The notes beneath the pieces are model-generated. The model worked only from the letters and a program-made list of their open reading frames with translations. It did not search any database and had not been told where the DNA came from. A DNA stretch of 64,000 nt from a virus (lineage: Duplodnaviria; Caudoviricetes), in the IMG/VR virus record IMGVR_UViG_3300036845_000196, positions 1,848 to 65,847 of that record; one strand, 5' to 3'. The translations under genes were made by a program, and so were the position numbers. Numbering within the stretch: the first letter of the stretch is position 1; every line of letters begins with the position of its first letter. Of the stretch, positions 5,182 through 46,630 are shown one piece after another.

Positions 5182-5591
5182 TTTGGTTAGCTTGGCTACC
5201 TTGGCCCTCACGCGACCGCTAGGATTTTACGGCCATAGAGACTTGCAAGGGCCACGAAAGCCAACGGTTTATCCGATACTGCAAAATCACGCGGCTGCGT
5301 TCTTTTCTTACTATGCTGTATTCAATACCGAGAAAATCCACGCGCCATTCAAAACAATCCCTCAGTGGAAGCCAGCGGATTTCAAAACCGCGGCGGTAGT
5401 ACGGCCAACCTTCGCGATCATCACGACTCCACCCAATGCGGAACGACCATGTGTTTGTCATGGTCCCAAAATCCATTCGATTAAATGCAACCCCGCACTT
5501 TTCGCCGCGCCAAAACATTTTCTCCACCCTCTATGGCCGTAAGAATCTCACAGAAAAATCGCGCGCCAAGGTAGCCAGTCTACCCAAAAAC
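5182..5591. mobile_element. Family-A inverted-repeat cassette 1 (arms 5182-5240 and 5529-5591)
   Basis: TTTGGTTAGCTTGGCTACCTTGG..TTTTACGGCCATAGAG and inverted CTCTATGGCCGTAAG..CCAAGGTAGCCAGTCTACCCAAA around one small ORF; mobility is inferred. Confidence 0.7.
5219..5518 (-). CDS. cassette cargo, Trp/Arg-rich hypothetical protein
   Basis: GGAG-AAA-ATG start beside the right arm; ends SMAVKS* inside the left arm. Confidence 0.55.
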   Translation of the reverse strand: MFWRGEKCGVAFNRMDFGTMTNTWSFRIGWSRDDREGWPYYRRGFEIRWLPLRDCFEWRVDFLGIEYSIVRKERSRVILQYRINRWLSWPLQVSMAVKS

Positions 5592-5593
5592 TT

Positions 5594-8074
5594 CTACCCC
5601 TCCGCCTCCAAATCCCCATGCCCATGAGGAATAGGCTTCACATCGGCATCCTTCGGCTCGTTCGTAAACGGCCCTCTTTCCAACTTCGATTCCTGCCCTC
5701 GACACCACGCCGACCACCCATTCCAGTCAACCCCTATTTTCCTCGCGTGCGCCCGCTCATTCGGAGTGCCGGATCGGTTATGCGCTTTGAGATAAATTTT
5801 CTTACGCTCCGGCGTCGAAGGTTCGCGCTTGTGCAGACTTTTAAATTCTCTCAGCAAGTTTTCCAAATCCTCACGCTCCGGCACCTCGTGATGCAGCAGC
5901 ACATCGTCCACGTCGACGGTCTTGCCCTTGATGTTCGCCGTCGCTGGAATGTTTTTGTTCTTATACATCGTCGCGCCGTCGATCGACATGCAGGACATCC
6001 ACGGGCCGTCGTGGGTGGCGTCGATTTTGACTGTACTCACGCCCTTAGCCGGCTTGGTCGTATCGCCGTTTTCCAGCCAGTGCTTAAAACCATCGACCGG
6101 CATTTCCGTGACATGGCCCATGCGTTCACGGCCGCGACCGTCGGAGAACGCGGCGCGATAGGTTTTGTTGACCTGTGCCCGCGATGCAAAACCGAGAAAC
6201 GCTTTGTGCTCGTCGAACTTTCTGGAGTCCGCGTTCACCTGATCGACGATGTAAACCGTGGGCGCTTTCAGATGCGGCCCGATGTAAACGTCAACGTGAT
6301 CCTTGTCCTTGCCGACGGTGCCTTTGATGTAGCCGTAGTGAGCTGGCATCTTCACCGACCACGCCTTGCCACCTTTATCCACGCCGCGCCGGTAATGACC
6401 CTTGGCGTTTTCAATGGTGATGTCGAGACCGTGAACGTGAATGTGGTCCTTGGCGTAATTGCCCGCTTTCTTCTGCGCCTCGGTCGGCTCGTGTTCGATG
6501 TTGGAGGCTTCGACGCGACCACCAGCAGCGCGCTCGGCAGCCCTCCGCTCCCAAAATTTACACACAGCCCACGGCGAGATTATTCCGCGCACAGCACTAC
6601 ATGAACTAGGCGCAACAAACATGCTGCAAGTCCCGCATCGACGCTGCCCCGTGCCCCCACGGTAGACCGCCTGCACCTTCGTCACCTTCCCCGAAACCGC
6701 GCCACCTGTCGCCATGCCTTGATCGGCAAACGGGTCGTGATCGACCGGAGTGGTGGAAAAGTGCGCGGCGTTGCCTGCAATCAGGCCGGCGATGCCGTAT
6801 TTTTTTACGATGTTGATCGTATTGGGATCGAAGACCACGAAATTACTCGTCTGCGGTTGTTTCAATTGACCGCGAAGGCTGCCGATTTTATCCTGAATAT
6901 CCTCGATATGCCTTTGGTCTACGTTGCCGTTCGGGTCGGCTCCGCCTTTGCGGAGATATTCGATGTCGGCTTGGTGGGATGCAATCTTGTTCTGAATATC
7001 GGAATCGCTTAAACGCCGCGACCCCTGATCCAGATATTTGATGCCGGGGATGCCTGCTTGGCGAAGGGCCTGTGACGAATAAGCCGGATCATGATTTCCT
7101 AATCTAAGAACGCGAGACTTATCGCCGCCGACCATCGCAAGGGATTCGTCGTATGTGTTGCCGCCTTGCTTCCATAGCGACTGCGGATTATCGCGGATCG
7201 GATAGGTATATTTCGTCATGCCACCGACAATTGAACTGCCGCTAAGGTCATCGTCGGCCAATTTCATCTTTTCCCACGTTTCCGGGGAATAGTCCGATTT
7301 TTGGGTCTTGCCAGCGAGATAATCCGCGAGGGCGCCCTTGATCTCTGGCGTGACGCCAAGCGCCTCCTGCACCTTCGGGTGCTGCTCACTCAGCGGCTTA
7401 TCCCAGTCCAAAAAATGATCGGGATCGGCGGCTATGTTGACTTCGTACATGCGACCGCGCTGCGGATCGTTCGCAATCAGATTCTTCGCTTCTTGTTCCG
7501 TTAAGCCATTCGTCTTTTCGTTTGTTTGATGTCTGCCGCCGCCGGCATATTCAACCGTATAGGTGCCATCATCCTCCCTCACCATGTATGGTTCCGGGGA
7601 TAGCGCTTTTTTATATTCCTCGCTTACCGCCGGATTCTCCGCAAAATACAATCCATGCCCGTACGCCTGGGCGCCCTCTCCGGTTCCTATCTTGGACAGG
7701 TCGAACTTGTCGAAGTCGTAGGGGGAACCGTGATAGGCGCGGATGCCTTGGGGGATAATATCTTCGGCCGCTTCCGCGATTGGTTTTAGCGCCCGCGCTT
7801 CCGGCGCCATCAACGCGGGCACCGCCCCCAGCGCGAACATCTGGGCTTCCTCTGGCGTCATATTTCCGCGTAGCGCACTCACGGCATCGTTGATTCCCAG
7901 TGCAGACCCGACACCGCCTGCGATTGTTGATGGCGCCTGCGCCATTTCGGCGGGGATGTTCTGTTGTGGGATTGTCTGGCCGGATTTTGGTGTTGGGGCG
8001 TCGGCGAACTGGGGAGTGTAGTTCACCGGCATCAGATCGTAATCGGGGGGAGTATTAAGGTTTGGGTCATCCAC
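5594..8074 (-). CDS. polyvalent protein: ART-PolyVal-like, HiPIP-like and InPase domains
   Basis: AYHGSPYDFDKFD..IGTGEGAQAYGHGLYF (ART-like); CGTCSMF..C..VRGIISPWAVCKFW (HiPIP-like); EPTEAQKKAGNY..HYGYIKGT.GKDKDHVDVY..FDEHK (InPase). Confidence 0.8.
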   Translation of the reverse strand: MDDPNLNTPPDYDLMPVNYTPQFADAPTPKSGQTIPQQNIPAEMAQAPSTIAGGVGSALGINDAVSALRGNMTPEEAQMFALGAVPALMAPEARALKPIAEAAEDIIPQGIRAYHGSPYDFDKFDLSKIGTGEGAQAYGHGLYFAENPAVSEEYKKALSPEPYMVREDDGTYTVEYAGGGRHQTNEKTNGLTEQEAKNLIANDPQRGRMYEVNIAADPDHFLDWDKPLSEQHPKVQEALGVTPEIKGALADYLAGKTQKSDYSPETWEKMKLADDDLSGSSIVGGMTKYTYPIRDNPQSLWKQGGNTYDESLAMVGGDKSRVLRLGNHDPAYSSQALRQAGIPGIKYLDQGSRRLSDSDIQNKIASHQADIEYLRKGGADPNGNVDQRHIEDIQDKIGSLRGQLKQPQTSNFVVFDPNTINIVKKYGIAGLIAGNAAHFSTTPVDHDPFADQGMATGGAVSGKVTKVQAVYRGGTGQRRCGTCSMFVAPSSCSAVRGIISPWAVCKFWERRAAERAAGGRVEASNIEHEPTEAQKKAGNYAKDHIHVHGLDITIENAKGHYRRGVDKGGKAWSVKMPAHYGYIKGTVGKDKDHVDVYIGPHLKAPTVYIVDQVNADSRKFDEHKAFLGFASRAQVNKTYRAAFSDGRGRERMGHVTEMPVDGFKHWLENGDTTKPAKGVSTVKIDATHDGPWMSCMSIDGATMYKNKNIPATANIKGKTVDVDDVLLHHEVPEREDLENLLREFKSLHKREPSTPERKKIYLKAHNRSGTPNERAHARKIGVDWNGWSAWCRGQESKLERGPFTNEPKDADVKPIPHGHGDLEAEG

Positions 8075-8255
8075 GGCCGAATGTCCTTGAACTCAGTGCG
8101 GTCACCCAACCGTCAAATATTAAACGGTTCTCTTGTGGGGTGCTTTGACGTTATGCCCTGCGTGAATCGGCGTGTGTCCTGCATAACCACCCCACAAGAG
8201 AACCGTTGACCGAGTCCGGTGCCGCTGCACCCAAAGCCTCTCGTGACCCAGAATC
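8058..8255. mobile_element. Family-B cassette with non-coding hairpin cargo (arms 8058-8105 and 8205-8255)
   Basis: AGGTTTGGGTCATCCACGG..CTCAGTGCGGTCAC and inverted GTTGACCGAGTCCGG..CTCTCGTGACCCA. Confidence 0.65.
8123..8207. repeat. perfect 20-bp inverted repeat with inner 7-bp stem
   Basis: AACGGTTCTCTTGTGGGGTG / CACCCCACAAGAGAACCGTT; inner GTTATGC / GCATAAC. Confidence 0.9.
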
Positions 8256-8266
8256 TTACCCTAATT

Positions 8267-10738
8267 TCAACGCGGCACAACTAACAAGAATTTACCCGGC
8301 CGTGCCCTATCTTCGACATAATCTCGCCCGTCTTTTGCCGTTCTTGCCCCTATGAGTGAACCTTGATGTTTCACCCCACCGCCCTTCGCGCGCTGTTGCT
8401 GCTGTATGCGACCGCCGTTTTGCTGTTGATCTTCTACCCTTGGAACATTCTGCTGCTGTGGCTGGGCGCCCGCGCTGCCTGGCAACTGGATTTGCGGCAG
8501 GCTGGAACCGCGCTGCGCCCCGAAATACCCGGAAGCCCGCGACGCGAGATTACGCAAACCATCGGCCACCCGCTGATTCTTGGTCGCGATCTGGAGCCCC
8601 CGCATCAACTCCGACGGATCGTTGGACGCCAATAACCGCGCCACTTCGCCCGCCGTGCGGCGGTCCACATAGCCCAACGCCGTCTTGGCACCCGTCAGCA
8701 CGCCGTGGCGAATCAGCCCTGACGCCCCACCCGCAAGGCCGGCGCCCGCAGCGGTCCCCGCCGCCTCCAACGTCTCGCGCGGATCACCGCCCGACAGGAA
8801 TGCCCCGCCAGCCCCTCCGGCCAGGCCGGCCTCGATCATCTGCCGCGCCGTCGTCGAATTCCCCAAAGCCTTGCGCGCTGCGTCGAAGATACGCTCGCGA
8901 TTGACGAACGCCTGCATGGTGTCGATGCCCTGCGGCCCGAACACCGCGCCGATGATCTTGCGCTGCTGCGGCGAGTTGAATATCGAATTTGTGATGTCGC
9001 GGTTGTCGCCCGCGCTTTCGGCCTTGCGCGCCAGGGCATCGGCAAACGATTCCTGGAACATGCCCTGTTCGGCCGGCTTCATGTTGTTTACGATGAGTCG
9101 CAATTGTTCCGGGGCGATGGCCTTTCCGTTGGCGTCCTTCCCGCTAAGCGCCTTCACACCGGCATCAATGGCATTGTTGCCACCGAAATACCTTGCTGCG
9201 ACCCCCCGCGCATCGGCAAATTGTGGAACCTGCTTGTCAAGCTCGGCTTTGAGCTGCCCAGCCAAACCACCAACTTGCGCCGCCGCCTGGTTGTCACCGG
9301 TGCGCTGCGCCCGCGAAGCCGCATCGCTCAGATTACGCTGGGCATAATCCCATAACTGCAAATTTGGATATGCCGGAACGCCGGTCTCCGGCTTGTAGGC
9401 ACTCGGCGGCGCCGGCGCCTGCGTTCCCGCACCAAAATCTTGTTCCCTCTGCACTCGGTCCCAAAAACCTTCACCGGACGGCGTCTTTGGCGGATTCTTT
9501 GACCAGATGAAGCGCCCATCATCGGTGACCTGAACGGGAGAATTCATGCCGCCGAAGCCGTCCCGGACCTGCCAATTCTTCCAGTTTGTGATGGCGTCCT
9601 GGAGCGCGCTGGTCACCACTGGCGCCCCCGCCAACCGTTCCAATTCCGGCGACCAGATCGGCCGATCGCCAGCCTGGTACGCCTTGCCGTAAGCCGCCCC
9701 ACGTTCCGCATCGTACTCCGCTTCCAACTGCGCCTTGGTCTTAAGCGTGTTGGCGCCCCCCGGAATAAGGCTGCGCGCCGTCACCCCGGCGCGGTCGTTC
9801 TGCGCCTGAAACCTATCTTGGATAACGCTATTCAACTCCGCGCGGCCTTCCGGCGACGTATTAGCCGCCGACCGCATCAAGGCGCGGGTCGTCTCGCCGC
9901 CCAAATCCATGAGCGACACAGGCTCGCCTGCGGCCTTAGCCGTGGCCCACTGTTGGGGTGTCAAGCCCAAGGCTGTTCCGCCGCTCACTTGCGGATAGTC
10001 GCGGTAGAGCGCCCCTGCAACCCGCCGCGCGGCCTCTTGTGCGGGATCGGTCCAGCCGCGGATCGTCGCCGCGATCGGTTGGCCGATGTAGCCGTAAGCC
10101 GCCGAGCCAAGACGCCCCAGCGCGGTCCCGCCAACCTCGCCGGCCGCGCCACCGACTCCACCTTCAATTCCGCCCTCGACAGCCCCGGTCAAAGCGCCCG
10201 GCAAGCCACCTGTGCCGGCACCTTCCGACGCGCCGCTTGCCGCGCCATATCCCGCGCCAACTTTCATCGCCTGTCCGACGCGCCCTGCAAGTGTGGCCGC
10301 CGCTTCCTCTGGGCCAGCCAGCATCATCGACGCCCCAGCCCCACCCAATTCTCCGGCCCCGTAAGCGTAAGGGTGTTTCGCCTTCATCGCCGTCGTTTGC
10401 TTTTGCAGCGCCGCCATGGTGGCATCATACGCTTGGCTGGCGCTTCCCGGTGTTCCCGTAAAGTGTTCATAGGCCAAGCGCGCGGCGCCGACAGGCATTC
10501 GAATCAGCGGACTGACAAGCGGCGGCAACCCCGAGGCGGATGCCGCAGCACTCCCTTCGTCAGCCCATCCGGCAGTTGCGCCGTGGACAAGACCGGCCGC
10601 CCCCGATTCCAGTATATCCGGATCAGCAGTGGCCGCCGGGGGCGCAGTCGGCGGCTTCGGCGGAATCAAATCGTCATACGTCCCCCCACCCGCCGGGGGC
10701 GGCGAAGCAGCGGGCACCAGATCGTCAAACATTCCCAT
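8267..10738 (-). CDS. internal virion / DNA ejection protein
   Basis: Large Ala/Gly-rich helical protein with N-terminal FDDL/YDDL motifs; position after the nozzle and other ejection genes. Confidence 0.65.
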   Translation of the reverse strand: MGMFDDLVPAASPPPAGGGTYDDLIPPKPPTAPPAATADPDILESGAAGLVHGATAGWADEGSAAASASGLPPLVSPLIRMPVGAARLAYEHFTGTPGSASQAYDATMAALQKQTTAMKAKHPYAYGAGELGGAGASMMLAGPEEAAATLAGRVGQAMKVGAGYGAASGASEGAGTGGLPGALTGAVEGGIEGGVGGAAGEVGGTALGRLGSAAYGYIGQPIAATIRGWTDPAQEAARRVAGALYRDYPQVSGGTALGLTPQQWATAKAAGEPVSLMDLGGETTRALMRSAANTSPEGRAELNSVIQDRFQAQNDRAGVTARSLIPGGANTLKTKAQLEAEYDAERGAAYGKAYQAGDRPIWSPELERLAGAPVVTSALQDAITNWKNWQVRDGFGGMNSPVQVTDDGRFIWSKNPPKTPSGEGFWDRVQREQDFGAGTQAPAPPSAYKPETGVPAYPNLQLWDYAQRNLSDAASRAQRTGDNQAAAQVGGLAGQLKAELDKQVPQFADARGVAARYFGGNNAIDAGVKALSGKDANGKAIAPEQLRLIVNNMKPAEQGMFQESFADALARKAESAGDNRDITNSIFNSPQQRKIIGAVFGPQGIDTMQAFVNRERIFDAARKALGNSTTARQMIEAGLAGGAGGAFLSGGDPRETLEAAGTAAGAGLAGGASGLIRHGVLTGAKTALGYVDRRTAGEVARLLASNDPSELMRGLQIATKNQRVADGLRNLASRASGYFGAQRGSSLPQIQLPGSAGAQPQQQNVPRVEDQQQNGGRIQQQQRAKGGGVKHQGSLIGARTAKDGRDYVEDRARPGKFLLVVPR

Positions 10739-10739
10739 G

Positions 10740-13886: not shown

Positions 13887-13891
13887 CTAAA

Positions 13892-16407: not shown

Positions 16408-16780
16408 AGTTTGTCTCATTCTCGCATCGTCGCGCGACAACTCAGTGCGGTCACCCACGCGAAAGTGAAACGCTGGATATATCCTTCCACATTCGCAAGC
16501 CGGCTACGAGTTGGCTTCTAGGCACGACTTCAATTTCCTCTATCGCAAACTCGCCCAACAAATTATAGCCGGTCACCGTAAATCGACAGGGATGCGCGGC
16601 CGAAGTGAGGGCAATTCCATCGCGCGGAAACACCAACGATGCCTTGATTGGCATCAGACTCGCCGCGCGCACGATTGCCGGCGCCACAACCAAACTAGCC
16701 GCAGCACCAAAAAAGAACCCGCGCCGACTGAGACTAGTTGACCGCACCGTTATCACTCCGCCCTCGTGACCCAAAACCCC
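16408..16780. mobile_element. Family-B cassette (arms 16408-16454 and 16737-16780)
   Basis: TTTGTCTCATTCTCG..CTCAGTGCGGTCAC and inverted GTTGACCGCACCGTTA..CCCTCGTGACCCAAAACC. Confidence 0.65.
16451..16774 (-). CDS. cassette cargo, twin-arginine-signal-like protein
   Basis: SRRGFFFGAAASLVVAPAIVRA; stop TGA lies in the left arm; start codon uncertain. Confidence 0.55.
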   Translation of the reverse strand: MGHEGGVITVRSTSLSRRGFFFGAAASLVVAPAIVRAASLMPIKASLVFPRDGIALTSAAHPCRFTVTGYNLLGEFAIEEIEVVPRSQLVAGLRMWKDISSVSLSRG

Positions 16781-17348: not shown

Positions 17349-17501
17349 TCAGAGTGTCCTTTTTTTACTGATCGGGATGTTTGTCACGATAGTGGAAAGA
17401 TTGGTCACCACGTCCTTGAGCGTGTTGTTGATGTTGGCGCAGTCTTGGTTTGGCGGCTGCGCCGTGGTCGCCGTGTTGTTTGGTGGAAGCGGCTGGGCCA
17501 T
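17349..17501 (-). CDS. 50-aa ORF partly paralogous to the downstream gene
   Basis: Manual translation MAQPLPP..INNTLKDVVTNL.. versus VNSTLKNVVTNL. Confidence 0.45.
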   Translation of the reverse strand: MAQPLPPNNTATTAQPPNQDCANINNTLKDVVTNLSTIVTNIPISKKRTL

Positions 17502-17875
17502 CTGGTTAGCTTGGCTACCTTGTCTGTCACGTCACCGCTGGACTTTTACATGCCATGGAGGCCTGGTTCTTTTCCCGCTCGCGCCTCGCCCATTCGTGGG
17601 CATCCTCAATGCGGCCAGATTCTAATTCGTCCGCGAGGACACGCAACCCAGCCGGGGTGATGCACGCAAAGCCACCATCCTCTGTCTTCAGTAATCCCCG
17701 CTTGACCAAACTGAGCGCCACTTTATCTGGAACGATCAACGCACAACTTGGCGACGCAAGAGCCCGCAGCAAACCCCGCTGTTTTGTCCCCAAATGAACC
17801 ATTATCACCCTCTATGGCCGTAAGAATCTCACAGAACTTTCGAGCGCCAAGGTAGCCAGTCTACCCAAACAAACC
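17501..17875. mobile_element. Family-A cassette 2 (arms 17501-17560 and 17810-17875)
   Basis: TGGTTAGCTTGGCTACCTTG..TTTTACATGCCATGGAG and inverted CTCTATGGCCGTAAGAATCTCACAGA..CCAAGGTAGCCAGTCTACCCAAA. Confidence 0.7.
17527..17802 (-). CDS. cassette cargo, winged-helix-like small protein
   Basis: SLVKRGLL....ITPAGLRVL; ends SMACKSPAVT* inside the left arm. Confidence 0.55.
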   Translation of the reverse strand: MVHLGTKQRGLLRALASPSCALIVPDKVALSLVKRGLLKTEDGGFACITPAGLRVLADELESGRIEDAHEWARREREKNQASMACKSPAVT

Positions 17876-24172: not shown

Positions 24173-24282
24173 AGGTTTTCTGGGTCACGAGGGCGGAGTG
24201 GCTACGGTGCGGTCACCATATCTCTGAAGACCGTTGACCGAGTCCGGTCTCTCCAACAAACAAACTCTCGTGAAACCAATCT
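24173..24282. mobile_element. Family-B empty cassette (arms 24173-24216 and 24233-24282)
   Basis: GGGTCACGAGGG..TACGGTGCGGTCAC, about 16 bp, then GTTGACCGAGTCCGG..CTCTCGTGAAACCAA. Confidence 0.7.
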
Positions 24283-32328: not shown

Positions 32329-32520
32329 TTAGGTTGATTCGATTCCGGGGGTGTTGTCAACGGGTTTTGGTGTGGTGGGTGTGGAAAGGTTTTTTGGGTC
32401 CGCACCTGGCTTGAAAGCATCCGGTAGAACAATGGTGAAATCGTAGCCGCGCTTCCATACTCCGGGACCGCTTTCGATGCGGATTCCGTTGGGTAGAGTT
32501 TGGACGTATTTTTGAGTCAT
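32329..32520 (-). CDS. hypothetical protein
   Basis: Starts immediately beyond the solo family-A arm. Confidence 0.45.
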   Translation of the reverse strand: MTQKYVQTLPNGIRIESGPGVWKRGYDFTIVLPDAFKPGADPKNLSTPTTPKPVDNTPGIEST

Positions 32521-32523
32521 GAA

Positions 32524-32586
32524 GGTTTTTGGGTAGACTGGCTACCTTGGCGCCCACGCCGCCGAGAGGGTTTTACGGCCATAGAG
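32524..32586 (+). repeat. solo family-A arm
   Basis: GGTTTTTGGGTAGACTGGCTACCTTGG..TTTTACGGCCATAGAG. Confidence 0.85.
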
Positions 32587-32587: not shown

Positions 32588-32836
32588 CTACACCATTGCT
32601 CCTGGCATCCCGTAGGTTGCCGCTATGCGCGCATCCCAGAATTCTTTTTGCGAAGCGCAGTATTCCATGATTTCAGTTCGACGCCAGCCGTACATTTCCT
32701 GCAGGATTGGATACACATCCTCGGCGTTGCGCAAAATCTCCCATAGCAGCCAATCCGTGATGATTTGTTGTTGCGCGACCGGAAACAGGAATGGCCGAAA
32801 CGCTTTGGGGAAGATGCCGCGGAGTTCTTCGGCCAT
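32588..32836 (-). CDS. hypothetical protein
   Basis: MAEELRGIFP..; stop abuts the inner end of the solo A arm. Confidence 0.5.
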   Translation of the reverse strand: MAEELRGIFPKAFRPFLFPVAQQQIITDWLLWEILRNAEDVYPILQEMYGWRRTEIMEYCASQKEFWDARIAATYGMPGAMV

Positions 32837-32869: not shown

Positions 32870-33082
32870 ATGATAAGCACACTCATCACCCTCATCATCT
32901 ATCTGCTGATCGTCGGCGTCATCTGGTATGCCGTCACGACCATCATGGCCGTCCTTCCGCTGCCGGAGCCGATTAAGACCGTCATCAACGTCCTGCTGAT
33001 CGTGGTGCTGTGCCTGATCGTGATTTTTGCTTTGCTCGACTTGCTCCCCGCTTGGATCGGGCCGCATTGGCGATTATCTTAG
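32870..33082 (+). CDS. small two-TM membrane protein
   Basis: MISTLITLIIYLLIVGVIWY..LPLPEPIKTVINVLLIVVLCL; antisense to the late operon. Confidence 0.65.
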   Translation: MISTLITLIIYLLIVGVIWYAVTTIMAVLPLPEPIKTVINVLLIVVLCLIVIFALLDLLPAWIGPHWRLS

Positions 33083-35666: not shown

Positions 35667-35686
35667 GGGACTCTTTGGGGTTTGTT

Positions 35687-35970
35687 AGGTTCGGGTCACG
35701 AGGGCGGAGCGATTATGGTGCGGTCAAACGTTCTTTCTTCGCTTTCTCCCGATAGGCTTTGAAGAACTTAGCAGCACGTTCGTCTATTTCAACGGGACTA
35801 CGCGCTCTGTCGATAAGACGCATGAGCGTTCGTTTTATCTTCGCCCTGTCTGAAAGCAAATCGTATGGGATCGGAATAAACGTCAACCCAATCTGTATCC
35901 ACCGCTCCGAAAGCGGAATGTTGACCGAGTCCGGCCCATCAACTCGCGCATGACTCTCGTGACCAAAATG
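35687..35970. mobile_element. Family-B cassette (arms 35687-35727 and 35920-35970)
   Basis: GGGTCACGAGGGCGGAG..TGGTGCGGTCAA and inverted GTTGACCGAGTCCGG..CTCTCGTGACCAAAA. Confidence 0.65.
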
Positions 35971-37684: not shown

Positions 37685-37685
37685 G

Positions 37686-38684: not shown

Positions 38685-38698
38685 GGGTTTGTTCTCGT

Positions 38699-39148: not shown

Positions 39149-39150
39149 GC

Positions 39151-39321: not shown

Positions 39322-39323
39322 GC

Positions 39324-39563: not shown

Positions 39564-39571
39564 GGTGATTC

Positions 39572-39915
39572 AGGTTTGGTTCACGAGAGGTTTGTGGTTA
39601 CGGTGCGGTCAACATTGGCAATTACATTTACCTTTTCTTGAAGCCCATCAAGATGGTCACTCATGAGCAGGATCATTCCTGCCTTTGCTGCGGTGATATG
39701 CGTGTTGTCATCGATAGACTGCCGAAGAATGGCGAAGCCGTACTTTCCGTTTCGACTAATTACCAACGCATCGTGGTTCCATTGGATGTCAATTCGACAG
39801 TCGCCCGGCAACTCAATAGCCGCAGCCAAATCCTCGGCAACTTGCAGCATATTTCTCGGCATGCGATTGACCGTGATGACGCGCAGCCAACGCTGGCCGC
39901 GAATGAACCAAACCT
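39572..39915. mobile_element. Family-B cassette (arms 39572-39613 and 39867-39915)
   Basis: AGGTTTGGTTCACGAGAG..TACGGTGCGGTCAA and inverted TTGACCG..CCGCGAATGAACCAAACCT. Confidence 0.65.
39581..39862 (-). CDS. cassette cargo, hypothetical protein
   Basis: Reads through the left arm and stops at its CTCGTGA. Confidence 0.5.
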   Translation of the reverse strand: MPRNMLQVAEDLAAAIELPGDCRIDIQWNHDALVISRNGKYGFAILRQSIDDNTHITAAKAGMILLMSDHLDGLQEKVNVIANVDRTVTTNLS

Positions 39916-39920
39916 AAAAA

Positions 39921-40643
39921 CTACGCCGCCTTATAATCGCGCCGCGCACGTTTCTCTTTGACCAGGCGCGCCTCGCCACCACCGGAACCGCCCGGCAGTT
40001 TGGTGGCTTTGTCCACACCTTGCGGCGATTCGATCTTGCCGCCGCGCGCATACGTGACCGGCTTGCCGCGGAACATATCGCCGAGGTCTGACTTGCCCGG
40101 AGTATGGGTCGGCTGCGTTCCGTTCTTCACGCCCTCTTTCCACGCGGGGCCGTCCTTGACACTACCGCCGCGCGCCCGCATCGGCATTCCCGGCGGCATC
40201 ATCGGCGGACGCGGAGGCATCCCCGGAGCGCCACCTGGCGGCGGCATACCACCGGGAGGCATTCCAGGCGGACCTGCAGCACCCATCGGCGGAGCACCCA
40301 TCGGGGGCATCGGCGGATGGGGCGGCGGCATGGGCATTCCACCGGGCGGCATCATCGGACCTGCGCCCGGACCATTGGGGTGCGAGGCGTTGATGATATT
40401 GACCGTGGTGCCCTTGTGCTTAACCTTGCCGCCGCGCGCCCGCTTGTCGGCCCGATGTTTGACCTTGCCGCCGTGCATCCGCAGCGAGTTCGGCTTGACC
40501 AGTTTCTTGACCAACTTCACATCGGCTTTTTCGTCGGGGTGATTCGCGGGGACAGCGCCACCGTGGGCGTAGCCTTTGGTAAGGCGCTTGGCGCGACTGT
40601 GTTCGACGATGGATTGGCGATGGGCGGCGTGGGGGTGCGGCAT
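39921..40643 (-). CDS. basic Pro/Met-rich protein with repeated xxxGGx[VI] motifs
   Basis: YAHGGAV, MHGGKV, RARGGKV, RARGGSV, YARGGKI. Confidence 0.65.
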   Translation of the reverse strand: MPHPHAAHRQSIVEHSRAKRLTKGYAHGGAVPANHPDEKADVKLVKKLVKPNSLRMHGGKVKHRADKRARGGKVKHKGTTVNIINASHPNGPGAGPMMPPGGMPMPPPHPPMPPMGAPPMGAAGPPGMPPGGMPPPGGAPGMPPRPPMMPPGMPMRARGGSVKDGPAWKEGVKNGTQPTHTPGKSDLGDMFRGKPVTYARGGKIESPQGVDKATKLPGGSGGGEARLVKEKRARRDYKAA

Positions 40644-40901
40644 TTAATTTTCTCCCGATGAAACGTCGACCGAGTCCGGCGTGTCAGACGGCACAGACTC
40701 TCGTGACCCAAACACCTTTACAGCCTTGATATAATACCACGGCTGGGCCGGTTCAGGCCACACCGGAACAACAAAAACCTCAGCGCAAGTATCGATCAAA
40801 GCCCTTGCGGCCATCGCTTCTTTTTCCGTCAGGAAAGCCTGCACAGGGCCCGAATGGCCCTCAACGCCGTTATTCACTGCGATTACCCAGATAGATTTCA
40901 C
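40644..40901 (-). CDS. hypothetical protein
   Basis: Coupled to the portal stop; 3' end runs through a family-B arm. Confidence 0.5.
   Translation of the reverse strand: MKSIWVIAVNNGVEGHSGPVQAFLTEKEAMAARALIDTCAEVFVVPVWPEPAQPWYYIKAVKVFGSRESVPSDTPDSVDVSSGEN
40665..40715 (-). repeat. family-B arm (long-spacer type), unpaired or outer arm of a compound cassette
   Basis: GTCGACCGAGTCCGG..CTCTCGTGACCCAAA. Confidence 0.8.
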
Positions 40902-43081
40902 GGTGAACTATTTCCCGAATCTGTTGGCGTCGGCGGGTTTAAAACTTGATGCACATCCAACGCATGTTGCGCAAGGTCCAAATTTTGGTCATGCACCGAT
41001 TGTGACGTTTGCAGCCCCAATTGTTTGTTGTCGTGGGCGGCGTCGGCCTGGTGGATGACCAGTTCCTTGGCCAAGTCGGTTTTGGCGATTTCCGCCTCGG
41101 TGGCGACCTTCTGCTGGTCGATCTGCAGCTTACCGGCGCCCAACTGCGCATCCGTCTGCGCCTTGGTCTGCGCGGTATTTGCCTGGGTCACCTTGGCTGC
41201 GGCGGCGATAGCCTGCGGATCGGGCGGCGGCGGTCCTTGCGGCTGTGCCGGCATGATCAGATTCGTCGGATCGACGCGGATGATGCCGAGAATGCGCTGC
41301 AGCGCCTCGCGCGGATCGAGCACCTGCGCAAACGACGGAATCTGGAACAACTGCGACAATCCCAACGCCTTTGCCACCCGATGGATATGCGACGGCGTAT
41401 TCGGATCGGCGCGCGGGATCAGATTGTAGTCGTTCAACGCCTGCTGGAACCGCTCGACGGTGCCGTAGACCTTCGCGAGCTTATTGCCCGACATGAAATC
41501 TTCCGGCGACTCGCGTAACAGATCGATGATCATGCCAATTTCTTCGGCCTGCGCCTTGTACTGCCCGCGATGGGCGGCGGCGATGACTTTTGTCGCCTGC
41601 TCGATTTGCGCGAGCATGGTGCCGACTGGGACGTTCTGCAGCCCCTCGGATGTCGGTAGGTCGCCTGTCCCGCCAACGTCTTTCGCCTGCGCGGTAATTT
41701 GTTGAATCAGCGACAACATCCCCGGCGTGATGTCGCGGTAGGGATTCGGCGCGATGATATTGCCGATGGGCTGGCCGTTCGTTTCAATGGGCGACCAAGT
41801 TCCCGGTCCCAATCGAATGTCGGACGTATTCTGCCGGCCGCCCAGCTTCGCAATCAACCCCGCCGGAAAATTCGCAAACATCGCGCAGTCGAGCGCCAGC
41901 CGCCACGCCGCCGTCATCGCCTGCGAACAGTTGCCCAGGATATTGAGCAAGCCCGTACCATAGAAACCCGGTCCCGGAATGTACGGAAACTTCACATACA
42001 TGCGCTTGCGCTTGCAATCGTCGTCGTCCTCTTTCCAATCACGGCGCAGCGCCAAAATCTCGCGCGATTCCTTGTCCATCGTTACGAGATACGGCAGCGG
42101 AATATTGCGCTCGGCGTATTTCTTCGGGTTTGAGCGCAGATCAAGTTCACACTGGGTTTCCCAGATGGTGTAGGGCTGATTCTCCGGACGTTCACGACGC
42201 GCGGGATTGGTGCCCTGGATGCCCGCCACCTTGGCCTCGACAGGACCGGGCGCCTGCTCGGTCGGCTGCGGCGGCAAGTGATCGCGATAGGCGCCTGCCA
42301 AAATCATGCGCTGCATGACCGAAGGCCGCATCTTGATCTGGTGCGTGATTCGCGCGCAGGATTTTAAATCTTTCGTCGTATCCGAGACGATAAAATCCTC
42401 GACGGCAATACTCTGCGATGTTGGCCTGCGCAGCAGCGGACAGCGATAGATTTTCTTGATGCCGGAGCCGCCGAAATACACACTCCAAAGCAGCATGTGT
42501 GACGTGTCGGGGTAGTATTCCGTCATCACGTCGGTAAAGAAATAATTCACATCGCGCTCGAACGCTTCGGCCACCTGGTCTTCGGCGGTCGTCGCGGAGT
42601 TTTCCTCGTCGATCTTGACCGGCCCCTCGGACGGCAGCAGTTCGGCTTCCGCGTTGGCCCAACCTTTCAAGCACGCTTCGAGCAATAGCGGATTGGTGAC
42701 CTGCGATTGGCCCTCGATCGCAGCAGATGTATCGCCTGCAGCAGCGCGTGGTTCTTTCAGTTCAAGGCCGAGGAAATCCATGGCGCGGGCGCGGATGGCC
42801 AATGTCTGCTTGCGCGAATCGTCGTCGGCTTGGATTTGCTCGTAAAGGTCTTCGGCGATCTTGCTGAGTTCTCCAGCCGCCAGATCATCCACAAGATTGC
42901 AGTCGAAGGCTTCAGGCTCGCCCTTGGCCTGCGGCCGATGCGCGTCGAGTTGCACCACCACGCCGCCGCCTTCCTGCGGGGTTGCGATCGTGCCGCTGAC
43001 CGGATCGACCGTGACGTTGCCGGTATCGTCTTCGACGACGACCTGGATGCCTTGGGTGGGTTGGACTTGGGGGTCAGCCAT
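40898..43081 (-). CDS. portal protein
   Basis: 727 aa after the terminase; NPLLLEA, GSGIKKIY, YIPGPGFYGTGL, PVGTMLA. Confidence 0.85.
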   Translation of the reverse strand: MADPQVQPTQGIQVVVEDDTGNVTVDPVSGTIATPQEGGGVVVQLDAHRPQAKGEPEAFDCNLVDDLAAGELSKIAEDLYEQIQADDDSRKQTLAIRARAMDFLGLELKEPRAAAGDTSAAIEGQSQVTNPLLLEACLKGWANAEAELLPSEGPVKIDEENSATTAEDQVAEAFERDVNYFFTDVMTEYYPDTSHMLLWSVYFGGSGIKKIYRCPLLRRPTSQSIAVEDFIVSDTTKDLKSCARITHQIKMRPSVMQRMILAGAYRDHLPPQPTEQAPGPVEAKVAGIQGTNPARRERPENQPYTIWETQCELDLRSNPKKYAERNIPLPYLVTMDKESREILALRRDWKEDDDDCKRKRMYVKFPYIPGPGFYGTGLLNILGNCSQAMTAAWRLALDCAMFANFPAGLIAKLGGRQNTSDIRLGPGTWSPIETNGQPIGNIIAPNPYRDITPGMLSLIQQITAQAKDVGGTGDLPTSEGLQNVPVGTMLAQIEQATKVIAAAHRGQYKAQAEEIGMIIDLLRESPEDFMSGNKLAKVYGTVERFQQALNDYNLIPRADPNTPSHIHRVAKALGLSQLFQIPSFAQVLDPREALQRILGIIRVDPTNLIMPAQPQGPPPPDPQAIAAAAKVTQANTAQTKAQTDAQLGAGKLQIDQQKVATEAEIAKTDLAKELVIHQADAAHDNKQLGLQTSQSVHDQNLDLAQHALDVHQVLNPPTPTDSGNSSP

Positions 43082-43331
43082 TTAGGTTTTTTGGATCACG
43101 AGAGGCTGGGGTTAGGGTGTGGTCAACCACGGGAGGCGGCCTCACGCGGTCCTTGATGTCGCGGAATGATTCGCCTTGGGATACAGCGCCAGCCGCCGAC
43201 AGCAGGCGCTCGATCGCCATTGCCGCCTCGCGCATGATGCTGGCACAGATTGAAGCATTATGCGACGCCGGATTATTTTCCACGTCGTTGGCGCGCACGC
43301 GCAGTCGTTCGATGAGATCAACGTCGGTCAT
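43074..43331 (-). CDS. hypothetical protein
   Basis: MTDVDLIERLR..EAAMAIERL; 3' end reads through a family-B arm. Confidence 0.55.
   Translation of the reverse strand: MTDVDLIERLRVRANDVENNPASHNASICASIMREAAMAIERLLSAAGAVSQGESFRDIKDRVRPPPVVDHTLTPASRDPKNLNG
43084..43127 (+). repeat. family-B arm (short-spacer type) immediately upstream of the portal ATG
   Basis: AGGTTTTTGGATCACGAGAGG..TAGGGTGTGGTCAA. Confidence 0.75.
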
Positions 43332-43533
43332 GGGTTTCCTCACTGCGATGCCGCATGATCGTTTCCATCGCTTTGTCACACGCCAAGATGGCGCCTGCGC
43401 GAATAGCACGCAGGCGCTCGATTTCATTGGCGGCCATTGTCAGCAATTCCGCAAGACAATCGTCGCGATATTCGCCGGGCTGGCGTTTTAACTCCGCCAT
43501 CATCCGCAATTCGTCCACGTCAACGTCGGTCAT
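43318..43533 (-). CDS. hypothetical protein, paralogue of 43074-43331
   Basis: MTDVDVDEL..AANEIERLR. Confidence 0.55.
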   Translation of the reverse strand: MTDVDVDELRMMAELKRQPGEYRDDCLAELLTMAANEIERLRAIRAGAILACDKAMETIMRHRSEETHDRR

Positions 43534-43621
43534 GGGCGAGTCTCCAAATAGTGGTAAAACGCGCCAGCCGCCACGACAGCGACGACTCCGATAAACGCCA
43601 ACAACAGATAAGCAGCATTGA

Positions 43622-43909
43622 TCATAGCCGCGGCCTCACTTTCATCACCGGCATTGTCGAATCACCCTCATCGGTCACCCGCTCCAGAATGCGTTTCTTC
43701 AACGCATCGCAGCCGAGATTGAGCGATCCTGCGTCCGTCCCGCCGATGGTCGTGGCAAAGCCGGTCTTCATGCAGACCACGATGCCGACGGTGTAGATGT
43801 TGCCCTTCTTGGCTTCCTCCAGGCATTCCTCCAGCTTGCCGAGACAGTCGAGTTGGTCGTCGTTGAGCGGGGTGGGGGAGAGAAGGATGAAGGGGGTTTT
43901 TGGGGTCAT
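43622..43909 (-). CDS. conserved hypothetical phage protein
   Basis: LEECLEEAKKGNIYTVGIV; ATG lies in the outer box of a family-B arm. Confidence 0.6.
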   Translation of the reverse strand: MTPKTPFILLSPTPLNDDQLDCLGKLEECLEEAKKGNIYTVGIVVCMKTGFATTIGGTDAGSLNLGCDALKKRILERVTDEGDSTMPVMKVRPRL

Positions 43910-44202
43910 TCGCGGTCTTTCGTGTTGCGGCTCAGTGCGGTCACACAAACTCAGATCGAAGCACGGACGATATTTCCCGAGGGTGTTAAGGCTTCCGTGA
44001 CGCAGCCCACCGCCGGTATCGTCCGCTTCGCTTCATGTTGGCCCGCTCCCTTGGTGCCCGAGTAACGGATGCGCGGCTGCCATCCAAGAACGTCCCGCGC
44101 CTCATGCCTGGTAGCTGGTGGGCCTGGTGGATTCAGTTTTCTCCGCGCATGGGTGACCGCACTGCGATTCGGGATTCCACTCCCCGCGAATGATACAAAC
44201 CC
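43894..44202. mobile_element. Family-B cassette with apparently non-coding cargo (arms 43894-43944 and 44153-44202)
   Basis: GGTTTTTGGGGTCATTCGCGG..CTCAGTGCGGTCAC and inverted GTGACCGCACTG..CCGCGAATGATACAAACC. Confidence 0.65.
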
Positions 44203-44204
44203 AC

Positions 44205-46064
44205 TTATACGTTGTATAGGGCTTTCGGACGCGGCCTGTGCGTAATCCGCTCCCGCTCCGCCACCTTGATTTCTTCATCGGTCGGCGCCAGCCCCACCAT
44301 CCGCAAGTGCCGCAGCGCCAATGTGGCCGAATCCGTCAGGTCCATGTATTTGCCGCGAGGGAAGGATTCCATTTCTTCCATGCAGATTTCGGCCCAATCC
44401 TTGATCGGCGACCAAACCTTCCCCTGCGAGAACATCGGTTGCACCGACAGTGCGCGTGCGTACTTATCGCCCTTCACGGGCGACAACTGCACTCCCCAAG
44501 GCTCATCGGCGTACAACCGCTGAATCTCCTGTGCCACCGCGATGCCGGTTTTCTCCGACTCGATGATCAGAAGATCAACGAGATGATAGCGGCACGAGAA
44601 TGCGATCCACTCGACCAAGCCCCACTCGCCGCCGCAGCGATTGCGCCACATCAAATCGCGTTGCCGCCTTTTGTTGATCGTGTCCCCCATCTGCGGAATT
44701 TCCATCGCCTGGCGCGGCATCAGCACACCATGCAGTTTCAATCGCTTGCGCCACGCATCGATCAACATGATCGCATTGTTGTCGGGATTGTCGGGGTGAC
44801 GGAACGTGCCCCAGATCGTAAAGCCGGACGGACAGTTTTCTTCTTTCTCGGTCGCGGCTGCGTCCAAAGACGCCAGCACGTAGTCGAACTGCGGCCAATG
44901 GCCGTCTTCGGGCGACCAGATGCGCCATTGATCGCGACGGAATAGGCCGCCGCCGCGGGGGGAAGGGCGCTGCTGGTATTGGCCGGCCCAACCGTACTCG
45001 CCGAGTTCACGCTGCAGCCGCGCCATCTGGTCGTTGGGGAATCGTTCAGGCCACGCCGGCACGCCTTGATTGGGCAAGTCGCCGTTCTTTTCGTAGACCA
45101 CGAAGCCCTCGTCATCGAGTTCGAGGCGCGGATCGATCCATCCGATTTCGTTCAGGTACGGTTCATCGGTTTCCTCGTTGACAATGCGTTCGGGTTCAAA
45201 CTCCCACGGGATCATGCAGTGGCAATAATCAAATTCAGGACCAAGCGCGACGCCGCTCACGTCGGACTCTTGGACTCGCTGCATGATGATCACGAGCGCG
45301 CCGGTTTCCAGATTGTTAAAGCGTGACGAGATTGACTCACGAAACCACCGCACGGTCTCATCGCGCACCCGTTCCGATTCCGCTTCTTGCACAGAATGGG
45401 GATCATCGATGATGATGCGGTCGCCGCGCTCGCCAGTCGCGACGCCGCCAACAGACGACGCGAGCTTCCAGCCGGTGCGCGTGTTCATCACCTTGATCGT
45501 GGTTTTGTTGCGTAGTTGGACTTTACCTTCGGCATCAACCTCGCTGACTTGTTCGGTCCCTTCGATGCGCTTTGTGCGCAGCGGACCATATGATCGCTGA
45601 TAATCTTCGGATGTAATCAGCGTGCGAAATCTATCGTTATCGCGTTCTGTAAGCGACGCCGAATATGAAAACGCCACGTAACGGTAGTGGGTTTTCTTCA
45701 TCGGCCCCCACTCCCACGCGGGCCAGAAACAATCAACGATAATGCTTTTGGCAAACCCTGGCGGGACATTAATTAAAAGCCGCGTAATCTCACCGAACGT
45801 CACCGCTTCGAGATGCTCGCACATCGCCCACAACGGCCACCCATCAACGAACGGCGTCTCCGGCTCCAGCACATGCCAAAAATACCGCACGAACGCGATC
45901 AGCCCACCCTCGCGCCGACAGCCCACGACGTAATGCTCGAACCGTTCGCCGTCGCGCTCGTACCAGCCTCGTTGAGACTGCAAATCCTTGGCGACACGAC
46001 GCAGATATTCTTCCGACAGCGCGCGGAATTTTTTGAGTTTTGTCTGGTCGAGCGGGGCGTTCAT
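44205..46064 (-). CDS. terL: terminase large subunit
   Basis: LLINVPPGFAKS (Walker A), IIIDDPH (Walker B), GQYQQRP, ASLDAA, FPRGKYMDLTDS. Confidence 0.92.
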   Translation of the reverse strand: MNAPLDQTKLKKFRALSEEYLRRVAKDLQSQRGWYERDGERFEHYVVGCRREGGLIAFVRYFWHVLEPETPFVDGWPLWAMCEHLEAVTFGEITRLLINVPPGFAKSIIVDCFWPAWEWGPMKKTHYRYVAFSYSASLTERDNDRFRTLITSEDYQRSYGPLRTKRIEGTEQVSEVDAEGKVQLRNKTTIKVMNTRTGWKLASSVGGVATGERGDRIIIDDPHSVQEAESERVRDETVRWFRESISSRFNNLETGALVIIMQRVQESDVSGVALGPEFDYCHCMIPWEFEPERIVNEETDEPYLNEIGWIDPRLELDDEGFVVYEKNGDLPNQGVPAWPERFPNDQMARLQRELGEYGWAGQYQQRPSPRGGGLFRRDQWRIWSPEDGHWPQFDYVLASLDAAATEKEENCPSGFTIWGTFRHPDNPDNNAIMLIDAWRKRLKLHGVLMPRQAMEIPQMGDTINKRRQRDLMWRNRCGGEWGLVEWIAFSCRYHLVDLLIIESEKTGIAVAQEIQRLYADEPWGVQLSPVKGDKYARALSVQPMFSQGKVWSPIKDWAEICMEEMESFPRGKYMDLTDSATLALRHLRMVGLAPTDEEIKVAERERITHRPRPKALYNV

Positions 46065-46261
46065 TCGGATGTATGCTTGATCGCCTTCATCAGTTCGTCG
46101 ATGACCCACCGAGGCACTGGGACCATCTCCATAAGTGTGTTGTGGTCGCTCGACGCCGTGCCAGGGCGAGCACCGGCCAAGATGCGCTTTATCTCGTTTG
46201 TCGCCGCAAGAAGCGTTGGCTTTGCTCTTTGCCTAAATGTTTGGTCGAATGGGGTGTTCAT
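46061..46261 (-). CDS. hypothetical protein
   Basis: Stop overlaps the terL start; begins just beyond a family-A arm. Confidence 0.5.
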   Translation of the reverse strand: MNTPFDQTFRQRAKPTLLAATNEIKRILAGARPGTASSDHNTLMEMVPVPRWVIDELMKAIKHTSE

Positions 46262-46274
46262 TCTTTGTTGTTTA

Positions 46275-46630
46275 TTTGGTTAGCTTGGCTACCTTGGCCC
46301 TCACATTGCCGCTAGGATTTTACGGCCATAGAGGCTGGAAGCGGCGGCAAAGGCATCCAATGTGTCGGCGAATAATAGTGTTCATACGAACCACCTTCGC
46401 CAATGAACACACCATCAAACACAATTTCAAATTGTCCTGAACTGTTAGCCCAACCATCGTAGCGAATAAATCTAATGCCGTAGTTCGGATCAAAACCCAA
46501 AAGCCGCTCTTTCTGCGTTTGATCCTTTGGTGCCGTGTCAATTGGTTGCCACTGATTCATTTTCTCCACCCTCTATGGCCGTAAGAATCTCACAGAATGA
46601 TCGCGCGCCAAGTTAGCCAAGCTAACCAAA
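46275..46630. mobile_element. Family-A cassette 3 (arms 46275-46333 and 46571-46630)
   Basis: Arms nearly identical to cassette 1 but cargo unrelated; lies between terS and terL. Confidence 0.72.
46312..46560 (-). CDS. cassette cargo, DUF551-like protein
   Basis: WQPIDTAPKD...PTHWMPLPPLP; ends SMAVKS* in the left arm. Confidence 0.7.
   Translation of the reverse strand: MNQWQPIDTAPKDQTQKERLLGFDPNYGIRFIRYDGWANSSGQFEIVFDGVFIGEGGSYEHYYSPTHWMPLPPLPASMAVKS

Follow-up and report, generated by a model that had tools for sequence, protein, structure and literature searches.

A conserved intergenic repeat of ca. 60 to 62 nt, which we call the family-A arm, occurs in inverted pairs around single small accessory genes of a temperate phage with a genome of ca. 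65 kb that belongs to a clade of uncultivated soil phages. The stretch analyzed here (the window) comprises 64,000 nucleotides, bases 1848 to 65847 of the single-contig virus record IMGVR_UViG_3300036845_000196, which is 65,847 nt long, has direct terminal repeats, and carries a completeness rating of 100%. The arms are conserved in anatomy and sequence among divergent relatives of this phage, bracket different cargo genes at one and the same genomic site, are represented by a single copy at empty sites, and encode the C-terminal tail of cargo proteins that end inside them. We think it fairly probable that they form a regulatory cassette system resembling the PeSLs (promoter-early stem-loops) and morons of other phages, with cargos being swapped by recombination within the arms.

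Anatomy of family-A arms and cassettes

A profile of the arm run with nhmmer on the 65,847-nt genome finds nine arms (E-values from 6e-19 to 4e-14, with the next match at 0.17), which form four inward-facing pairs (5182/5588, 17501/17869, 46275/46630, and 53284/53626) and one solo arm (32528); each pair encloses one small open reading frame (ORF). An arm consists of a 24-nt outer block, a spacer of 19 to 20 nt that is fixed in length and variable in sequence, and an inner block of 17 to 20 nt that is a near-palindrome centered on GGCC. We refer to the arm upstream of a cargo as the U arm and to the inverted downstream one as the D arm (see Table 1). In the U arms of cassettes 1 and 3, identity runs on through an 11-nt purine-rich leader up to the ATG, in agreement with the original prediction, which had started from a 40-mer shared by these two cassettes. 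Exactly two copies of this 40-mer were found (at 5516 and 46558, with 0 expected by chance), and the CAT that represents the minus-strand start codon indeed forms the border beyond which the bases differ.

The cargos of cassettes 1 and 3 had been called unrelated and show no similarity by tblastx, and their checked translations end in ..QVSMAVKS and ..PASMAVKS with both TAG stop codons lying inside the far arm. Cargos 2 and 4 end in ..SMACKSPAVT and ..PMAVKPKQDNREPR, respectively, likewise at stops inside the far arm, and all four cargo ORFs of the window enter that arm in one common frame (called the MAVK frame below). Cassette 4 agrees with the earlier description only in part, as its cargo does end inside the arm but no leader resembling a ribosome-binding site (RBS) precedes it and its upstream arm has a D-type spacer. 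It lies inside a rightward operon starting near 52645, and not at the point of divergent transcription, because the coding pattern makes 52645-52803 and 52860-53276 rightward genes.

Core genes that follow a D-oriented arm start ca. 7 to 25 nt beyond its outer end in the window and in the related loci L082, L061, and L062. Their leader is CA-rich (..CCAAACAAAC..; 5159-5181, 32521-32527, and 46262-46274 in the window) and often without a Shine-Dalgarno (SD) sequence, while cargo genes start behind a purine-rich RBS, so that two initiation contexts are found at the two ends of one module. At the solo arm L5, the gene starting at 32520 lies 7 nt from the outer end and has no SD sequence, and the stop codon of an ORF at 32588-32836(-) is 1 nt away from the inner end. 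Arm R3 of cassette 3 is located 4 nt past the stop codon of the TerS-like gene.

Origin of the C-terminal tails

If the SMAVKS tail is derived from the repeat, homology between a cargo protein and its homologs should end at the inner arm boundary, as the original prediction had proposed for DUF551 proteins, and the alignment bears this out. Eight phage homologs of the DUF551 cargo P0003 align over residues 1 through 73 to 77 of 82, and JBD44 gp73 and Pam5_66 end in ..PLPxPA(D) exactly where P0003 goes on into SMAVKS; a protein homolog search with P0003 recovered the query alone among 11 candidates. The DUF5131 cargos of loci L001 and L016 cover their Pfam profile completely (243 of 243 positions), and what is left of them, 8 and 15 residues, is the arm-coded tail. 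For the cargo of cassette 1 (P0001), a search of the full library gave 10 relatives, judged to be free-standing by their differing C-termini only, with alignments ending at residue 93 to 95 of 99, and tblastn found no match in GenBank phages. In an alignment of nine sequences, seven relatives share a WP-x-x-V-x-F/Y motif followed by 4 to 5 unrelated residues at their ends, another carries a longer tail, likewise unrelated, and the last one stops earlier; MAVKS is present in none. P0001 has thus lost about six native residues.

Free-standing homologs with the same tail, which would have contradicted an origin in the repeat, were thus looked for in the DUF551, DUF5131, and P0001 families and not found, and because the free-standing homologs of three cargo families lack the tail, it is arm-coded. 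Annotators should be aware that 6 to 15 C-terminal residues of such proteins are coded by the repeat.

Same-site comparisons and empty sites

The flanks of each cassette were searched against all loci. At one site (site X), the left flanks of loci L013, L016, and L085 are 95% to 97% identical and the right flanks 87% to 90%, and enclosed between them are cassettes of 1002 nt (5-hmdU DNA kinase), 1082 nt (DUF5131), and 477 nt (unknown cargo), respectively. Homology breaks at the inner arm ends, stopping a few nucleotides past the U arm and coming back at the first bases of the D arm. The arms themselves are mosaic, those of L085 combining variants of L013 and L016, and nine loci of this site show nine cassette sizes. 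Two further sites (Y and Z) include both occupied alleles, with cassettes of 303 to 567 nt, and empty alleles (L082/L077; L061/L062), in which a single D-oriented arm separates the upstream gene from the start of the one that follows. What an occupied site has in addition is thus the unit of upstream arm, leader, and cargo, added at the inner end of the resident arm. In occupied alleles of site Y, the upstream core gene ends in ..FAKEKVG at a TAG within the outer end of the U arm; in empty ones, it ends in ..FAKERPASMAVKSEQNG, again in the MAVK frame. This use of an outer-block TAG is seen in L011, L025, and L059, and other upstream genes take their stop from a U arm as well, such as window ORF 55271-55474(+), which ends in ..VTRVC inside an element of the second arm family (family B) described below.

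As to the window's own cassettes, L026 and L027 lack both cassette 3 and the 66-aa ORF that comes after it between the TerS-like gene and TerL, no A arm was found at the sites of cassettes 1 to 3 in relatives (these relatives being distant), and none of 64 loci around homologs of the 751-aa and 826-aa genes contains one. At the cassette-1 site, the nearest relative (L149) carries a family-B cassette, each end of which bears a perfect inverted B core of 15 nt, and L148 has a solo B-like element. The cassette-2 site holds an empty B cassette in L106 and L095, and the window keeps a B-like remnant there just before the next core gene. Cassette positions differ among related phages. One DNA run (contigs, probably from the source sample) showed assembly breaks and cross-mapping at the arms and no alternative alleles.

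Spread, conservation, and cargo diversity

A gapped pattern of the two blocks detected 25 IMG/VR loci, spread over 14 contigs, and 35 loci in metagenomes. In 185,579 species genomes, searched with two patterns, the arm motif does not occur, so that a host reservoir of the element is not apparent, and it has no match in GenBank phages. Five complete relatives contain 2 to 6 arm cores each (none with a reversed-pattern control), 16 of these 21 cores being paired, and all five also contain the B core in 1 to 11 copies each. Neither core was detected in five more distant complete or near-complete relatives whose TerL is 40% to 58% identical.

Across all loci and the window, the profile gives 123 arm hits that form 46 pairs and 34 distinct cassettes; the tally covers inward-facing inverted pairs, with tandem same-strand pairs lying outside it. 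Both blocks are conserved at 1.57 to 1.75 bits per column in U and D arms alike, though the TerL proteins of the relatives are at most 59% identical to that of the window. The prediction that unrelated ORFs share fixed translation signals also holds across this set, since the flank of U arms retains 1.03 bits per column up to the ATG versus 0.30 for the flank of D arms. The RBS begins 2 to 3 nt past the inner block, and in most U arms the ATG follows at +11 to +13 from the inner end of the arm. An all-against-all tblastx of the 34 cargos found one homologous pair (L001 and L016), and the 34 cassettes carry essentially 34 unrelated cargos.

Out of 20 cargos scanned, four passed the Pfam cut-off (DUF5131 twice, 5-hmdU DNA kinase, and HTH). 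The 5-hmdU DNA kinase helical-domain and DUF5131 proteins found at site X are among the cargos at 4374-5225 of L013, 8426-9361 of L001, and 6127-7119 of L016. The window itself encodes nucleoside 2-deoxyribosyltransferase-like and PAPS-reductase-like proteins (50297-50674 and 59840-60571) besides several methyltransferases. Taken together, these genes suggest that DNA hypermodification genes belong to the exchangeable pool.

Where cargo ORFs end

As assigned by an automatic caller, the ORFs of 14 of the 34 cassettes stop inside the D arm in the MAVK frame, one stops inside the arm in the LYG frame (L024), one in the third frame (L004), and 18 have a stop codon of their own. The L004 assignment is an error of the caller, as the ORF on the side of the upstream arm has its own stop, and one of the MAVK-frame cases (L061) relies on a TTG start. 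Measured from an ATGGCC anchor located 4 to 5 nt inside the inner end of the arm, 14 of the 18 own stops lie 5 to 29 nt before it, and the other four lie 115 to 834 nt before it in longer cassette interiors. Altogether, 30 of 34 cargo ORFs end between 29 nt before and 45 nt after the anchor. Cargos with their own stop are distributed over the three frames as 8, 7, and 3, which is compatible with uniform usage (P = 0.31).

A second, unrelated arm family

Family B is a second arm module, unrelated in sequence to family A, that is used like it and sometimes at the same site (coordinates in Table 1). Cargo stops inside inverted B elements had been proposed at five positions, of which 35713, 39581, 16451, and 55789 stand as described and 52803 stands after a correction of the strand (ORF 52645-52803 is rightward). 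The reported sharing of a leader by the genes starting at 54583 and 55517 is confirmed, and the same leader precedes a third gene on the minus strand (start 28818).

B elements with a CGGACTCGGTC core are nearly always co-oriented with the local genes (8205, 24233, 28837, 35920, and 40665 on the minus strand; 54522 and 55458 on the plus strand), and inverted partner copies have a variant core. In the complete relative G005, the element is found 10 times on one strand, spaced by 2 to 12 kb (most gaps 2.4 to 4.6 kb), and once on the other. Judged from its placement, this would be the pattern expected of a phage-specific promoter or another signal of operon direction.

In three genomes, the same HNH-family gene is encoded directly downstream of a cassette: at 55786-56391 of the window (behind a B cassette), at 45024-45485 of G001, and at 59050-59511 of G003 (both behind A cassettes). 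In G001 and G003, the HNH match runs across a stop codon into the arm.

Genomic setting

Genes of the window run leftward from ca. 52.5 kb down to position 1 and rightward from ca. 52.6 kb. Besides TerL, the TerS-like gene, and a tyrosine integrase, recognizable genes encode the portal, virion and ejection proteins, an exonuclease, and three HNH proteins. No GenBank phage is close, the best TerL and portal matches being 37% to 42% identical, and searches of NCBIfam with the integrase, the exonuclease, the Cro-like protein, and three cargos were negative. The longest-ORF call at 52599-53231(-) is probably spurious, as codon-position GC and a strong SD sequence favor the plus-strand genes 52645-52803 and 52860-53276. 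A Cro/HTH-looking ORF of 76 aa lies at 52281-52511(-), and together with the plus-strand genes from 52645 onward it delimits a divergent control region at ca. 52511-52645. Downstream of the inner end of solo arm L5 starts a candidate ORF resembling a two-helix membrane protein (32871-33082(+); MISTLITLIIYLLIVG..), which overlaps in antisense the basic, low-complexity C-terminus of a predicted 510-aa glycosyltransferase/methyltransferase-like gene, so that one of the two calls may be false.

Table 1. Arms, cargos, family-B elements, and landmark genes of the window (U_B and D_B, upstream and downstream arms of family B).
Feature	Coordinates	Strand	Remarks
Arm L1 (D arm, cassette 1)	5182..5240	+ (outer to inner)	holds cargo stop TAG 5219-5221
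Cargo 1 (P0001, 99 aa)	5219..5518	-	W-rich family, no Pfam match; last 6 residues (SMAVKS) arm-coded
Arm R1 (5530-5588) with 11-nt RBS leader (U arm, cassette 1)	5519..5588	-	
B cassette	16440..16769	-	U_B 16737-16769; cargo (..SLSRG) stops inside degenerate inverted B remnant ~16440-16460
Arm L2 (D arm, cassette 2)	17501..17560	+	inner block degenerate; holds cargo stop
Cargo 2 (P0002, 91 aa)	17527..17802	-	ends SMACKSPAVT
Arm R2 (U arm, cassette 2)	17810..17869	-	
Empty B cassette	24181..24273	-	co-oriented B 24233-24273, leader, ATG, 5-codon ORF MVTAP (arm-coded stop), inverted B 24181-24219
Solo arm L5 (D orientation)	32528..32586	+	
B cassette	35692..35962	-	U_B 35920-35962, inverted D_B 35692-35730; cargo ends ..RLTAP inside D_B
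B cassette, ~1.1 kb	39577..40706	-	U_B 40665-40706, inverted D_B 39577-39615; last ORF stop 39581 inside D_B
TerL	44205-46109		
Arm L3 (D arm, cassette 3)	46275..46333	+	holds cargo stop TAG 46312-46314
Cargo 3 (P0003, 82 aa, DUF551)	46312..46560	-	residues 77-82 (SMAVKS) arm-coded
Arm R3 (46571-46630) with RBS leader (U arm, cassette 3)	46561..46630	-	
TerS-like gene	46638-47327		
ORF 52645-52803 with B element	52645..52840	+	TGA inside inverted B element 52800-52840
Arm L4 (upstream position, cassette 4)	53284..53342	+	D-type spacer, without RBS consensus
Cargo 4 (83 aa, CxxC..CxxC)	53361..53612	+	ends PMAVKPKQDNREPR; stop is TAG of R4 outer block
Arm R4 (D arm, cassette 4)	53567..53626	-	exonuclease gene starts at 53639
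U_B element, shared leader, and start of 54583 ORF	54522..54585	+	
B cassette	55458..55835	+	U_B 55458-55498, cargo 55517-55789, degenerate inverted B ~55786-55835; HNH gene next
Tyrosine integrase	58482-59486		Pfam Phage_integrase, 34.7 bits

Cargo exchange and competing explanations

In the picture that we favor, the arm is an intergenic control module conserved within a clade of temperate, uncultivated phages, and each cassette places one small, moron-like accessory gene between two such modules. The upstream one would provide the RBS and fix the start codon at a distance of 11 to 13 nt from the inner end, and the inverted downstream one would abut, with its outer end, the start of the next core gene. 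As the two arms and their relative layout are the same in all cassettes, a swap of cargos would leave the core genes undisturbed. Exchange might take place between co-infecting relatives or between cassettes, as modular shuffling of the PeSL type with inverted instead of direct repeats, and with inverted repeats intramolecular recombination cannot delete the cargo. Homologous recombination inside the arms would suffice for such exchange, and the mosaic arms of site X fit this idea. The arm-coded stop and the SMAVK tail could then be by-products of tight packing, given that the arm has stops within reach and that an imprecise 3' junction would often cost the cargo its native stop or last codons. 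We infer recombination as the mechanism of exchange and a role of the arms in the control of transcription or translation.

Several observations weigh against this interpretation. Recombination accounts for the exchange of cargos and not for the first entry of a new ORF between arms, and it leaves unexplained how a one-arm site gains an inverted unit of U arm and cargo. No cargo was seen at two sites, as only one cargo pair is common to different cassettes. Among the in-arm stops, 14 of 16 are in the MAVK frame (P about 1e-5), which a passive model does not predict, and at most one ORF (the miscalled L004) uses the frame in which the arm offers its earliest stop. RecT or ERF recombinases were not found in the phage genome, which has an exonuclease only. 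Furthermore, a scan for the sigma-70 consensus called no promoter in arms L3/R3 and L4/R4, no arm contains a terminator-like hairpin with a T run (none follows the small outer hairpin), and single arms fold no better than shuffled sequences (z from -1.4 to +0.5). The label "regulatory" is therefore based on position and conservation. An extended -10-like word, TG-n-GAGATT, is visible in U arms, and inspection of the arms by hand for sigma-54, ECF-type (extracytoplasmic function), and outward-facing promoters revealed nothing convincing. One possible reason for the frame bias is that a C-terminal ..WP is avoided, as a C-terminal proline slows termination, though two tails ending in ..KP are at odds with this; another would be some gain from ribosomes reading through the inner block.

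The original prediction had likened the cassettes to an expression vector and inferred that a mechanism at work at the inner ends of the arms captures the cargos. The comparison is a fair description, but a dedicated capture mechanism does not follow from it: The 3' junction is imprecise, 18 of 34 cargos have their own stop, and a sharp inner boundary arises anyway because unrelated cargos sit between conserved repeats. We consider it unlikely that the arms are recombination or cleavage sites of a phage enzyme that opens a resident arm at its inner end and installs there a unit of arm, RBS, and ORF. Candidates for such an enzyme would be an integron-like tyrosine recombinase or a nuclease with specificity for sequence or structure, for instance the conserved HNH protein. 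Such site-specific capture would account well for a defined insertion unit, with empty sites having one D-oriented arm and occupied ones adding U arm and cargo exactly at its inner end, and for two unrelated arm families that share architecture and sites. The near-palindrome around GGCC, the strong single-frame bias of in-arm stops, and the empty B cassette, which keeps a start codon and the in-frame arm stop (MVTAP), point the same way. However, cassettes are dispersed and form no array beside a recombinase, and 3' junctions that range from -29 to +45 nt around the ATGGCC anchor (automatic caller) look imprecise rather than enzymatic. The integrase is the only recombinase found and lies at least 5 kb from any A arm; NCBIfam gives no integron-integrase match, and a homolog is absent from two of the five arm-bearing complete relatives (G001 and G002, both 100% complete), so that the arms do not depend on it. 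The HNH protein adjoins a cassette in the window, G001, and G003, and has a homolog in 5/5 arm-bearing and 1/5 arm-free relatives, but in a set of ten related genomes phylogeny confounds this association, which concerns gene order only and is no more than a lead. Rather improbable in our view is the bolder version in which A and B are docking sites of a virus-borne gene-capture platform whose enzyme opens a resident intergenic arm at its inner end and installs arm, RBS, and ORF in a preferred frame, again with the HNH protein, present in every arm-bearing genome and beside a cassette in 3/6 genomes, as one lead. If true, the docking sites would amount to a dispersed, integron-like expression system with inverted sites through which a phage clade samples an open pool of accessory genes.

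A function at the RNA level also carries a low probability. The arms would pair in the polycistronic transcript (ca. 24 plus 17 bp around an internal loop) with the accessory ORF looped out, serving RNase III-type processing, mRNA stabilization, or translational control, and ribosomes entering the D arm would melt the stem beside the RBS; all this would be compatible with exchange by recombination. It is consistent with arms being inverted and not direct in both families, with the RBS beginning 2 to 3 nt after the inner block, and with 30 of 34 cassettes having an ORF that ends at the D arm or within it, and a bias to the frame that reads through the whole inner block would fit such coupling. 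Yet the two arms of a cassette do not covary (identity of variable columns 0.359 versus 0.398 for shuffled partners, with 1000 of 1000 shuffles reaching the observed value), which would argue against selection for long-range pairing beyond the blocks. Moreover, the outer block is often present as two different variants within one cassette, solo arms match paired ones in conservation and occur in both orientations, the empty B cassette is only weakly more stable in folding than shuffled sequences (z = -1.39), and Rfam has no family match (whole window at the gathering threshold, cassette 3 at E ≤ 1).

Very unlikely, finally, is a non-autonomous transposable element of the type of MITEs (miniature inverted-repeat transposable elements) or mobile insertion cassettes, with arms as terminal inverted repeats and a host or phage transposase acting in trans. 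The ca. 60-nt repeats are indeed terminal and inverted, positions vary between related phages, and passengers are mutually unrelated, but there are no target-site duplications: The longest direct repeats spanning the ends of the 34 cassettes (3 nt in 11, 4 nt in 16, 5 nt in five, 6 nt in one, and none in one) match a shuffled-partner control. The empty alleles of sites Y and Z retain one arm, although in distant relatives the sites of window cassettes 1 to 3 are free of A arms. Furthermore, the complete phage genome has no match to Y1_Tnp, rve, DDE_Tnp_1, or Resolvase, and the absence of the arm motif from the species genomes searched also speaks against such an element. In the window and at sites X, Y, and Z, cassettes lie between genes and follow the direction of the operon, and their upstream arm carries expression signals.

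Significance and comparison with known systems

Accessory genes of phages, such as those for anti-defense, DNA modification, and host takeover, turn over fast, and their movement is understood in few model groups. The arms define a compact and recognizable "socket" of two inverted module copies that give RBS, start spacing, and often a stop, and they provide a sequence handle to harvest accessory genes of unknown function from metagenomes. They also constitute a natural case of cassette exchange with inverted, hence deletion-proof, homology arms, and the puzzle posed by two arm families, one-arm empty sites, and frame bias could reveal a new mechanism of recombination or expression control. 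In a literature search of open-access papers, inverted arms bracketing single ORFs in phage genomes were not described, and PeSLs, the start-associated sequences (SAS) and extended SAS (ESAS) of mycobacteriophages, and mobile insertion cassettes came nearest.

Morons of lambdoid and other temperate phages are defined singly by a promoter and a terminator. Like our cassettes, they place a single accessory gene, apparently with its own expression signals, between two core operon genes, but they have no shared clade-wide repeat that brackets the gene and allows cargo exchange. Mobile insertion cassettes and MITEs share with our cassettes inverted terminal repeats around passengers unrelated to transposition and differ by their target duplications, ends derived from insertion sequences (IS), and need for a transposase, none of which is seen here. 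Integrons have one attC per cassette in direct orientation, arranged in tandem arrays by intI/attI/Pc, and depend on IntI. Their cassettes are alike in being tightly bounded, mostly promoterless-looking single ORFs of extreme diversity whose stop may lie in the flanking site, whereas those described here are dispersed, have two inverted arms each, and occur in genomes without the integrase (2/5 arm-bearing relatives).

SAS and ESAS of Cluster K mycobacteriophages form a motif of unknown function just upstream of the starts of many unrelated genes (by 3 to 8 nt), and the inverted repeats of ESAS are 17-bp half-sites 4 to 13 bp apart upstream of the gene, according to the portion of the source consulted (PMC3203893). 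Conserved motifs immediately before unrelated starts and inverted repeats are common to both systems, which is a functional analogy between unrelated sequences; in the same portion of that source, ESAS do not bracket an ORF and cargo replacement is not described for them (PMC3203893).

The closest likeness is to PeSLs, which, in the portions of the sources consulted, are mobile regulatory cassettes of T4-type phages (PMC2839356, PMC4122927) that span the upstream stop, the SD sequence, and the downstream start (PMC2839356). Like the arms, they are intergenic repeats, tens of nucleotides long, beside ORFans or variable genes, and in both systems, insertions, deletions, and replacements between related phages break at the repeats, as far as the consulted text covers PeSLs (PMC2839356). 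The arms likewise span an upstream stop (the TAG of site Y), an SD sequence, and a downstream start, their cargos are ORFans, and replacement breakpoints coincide with them at sites X, Y, and Z. The same text describes PeSLs as direct repeats that carry a sigma-70 consensus promoter and a stem-loop tested as a terminator and that can form mini-circles (PMC2839356), whereas the arms are inverted around each ORF, have no detectable sigma-70 consensus or terminator, are unrelated in sequence, and belong to temperate phages of ca. 65 kb. What is new compared to PeSL-like systems is the inverted layout, the presence of two arm families that are interchangeable, and the group of phages carrying them.

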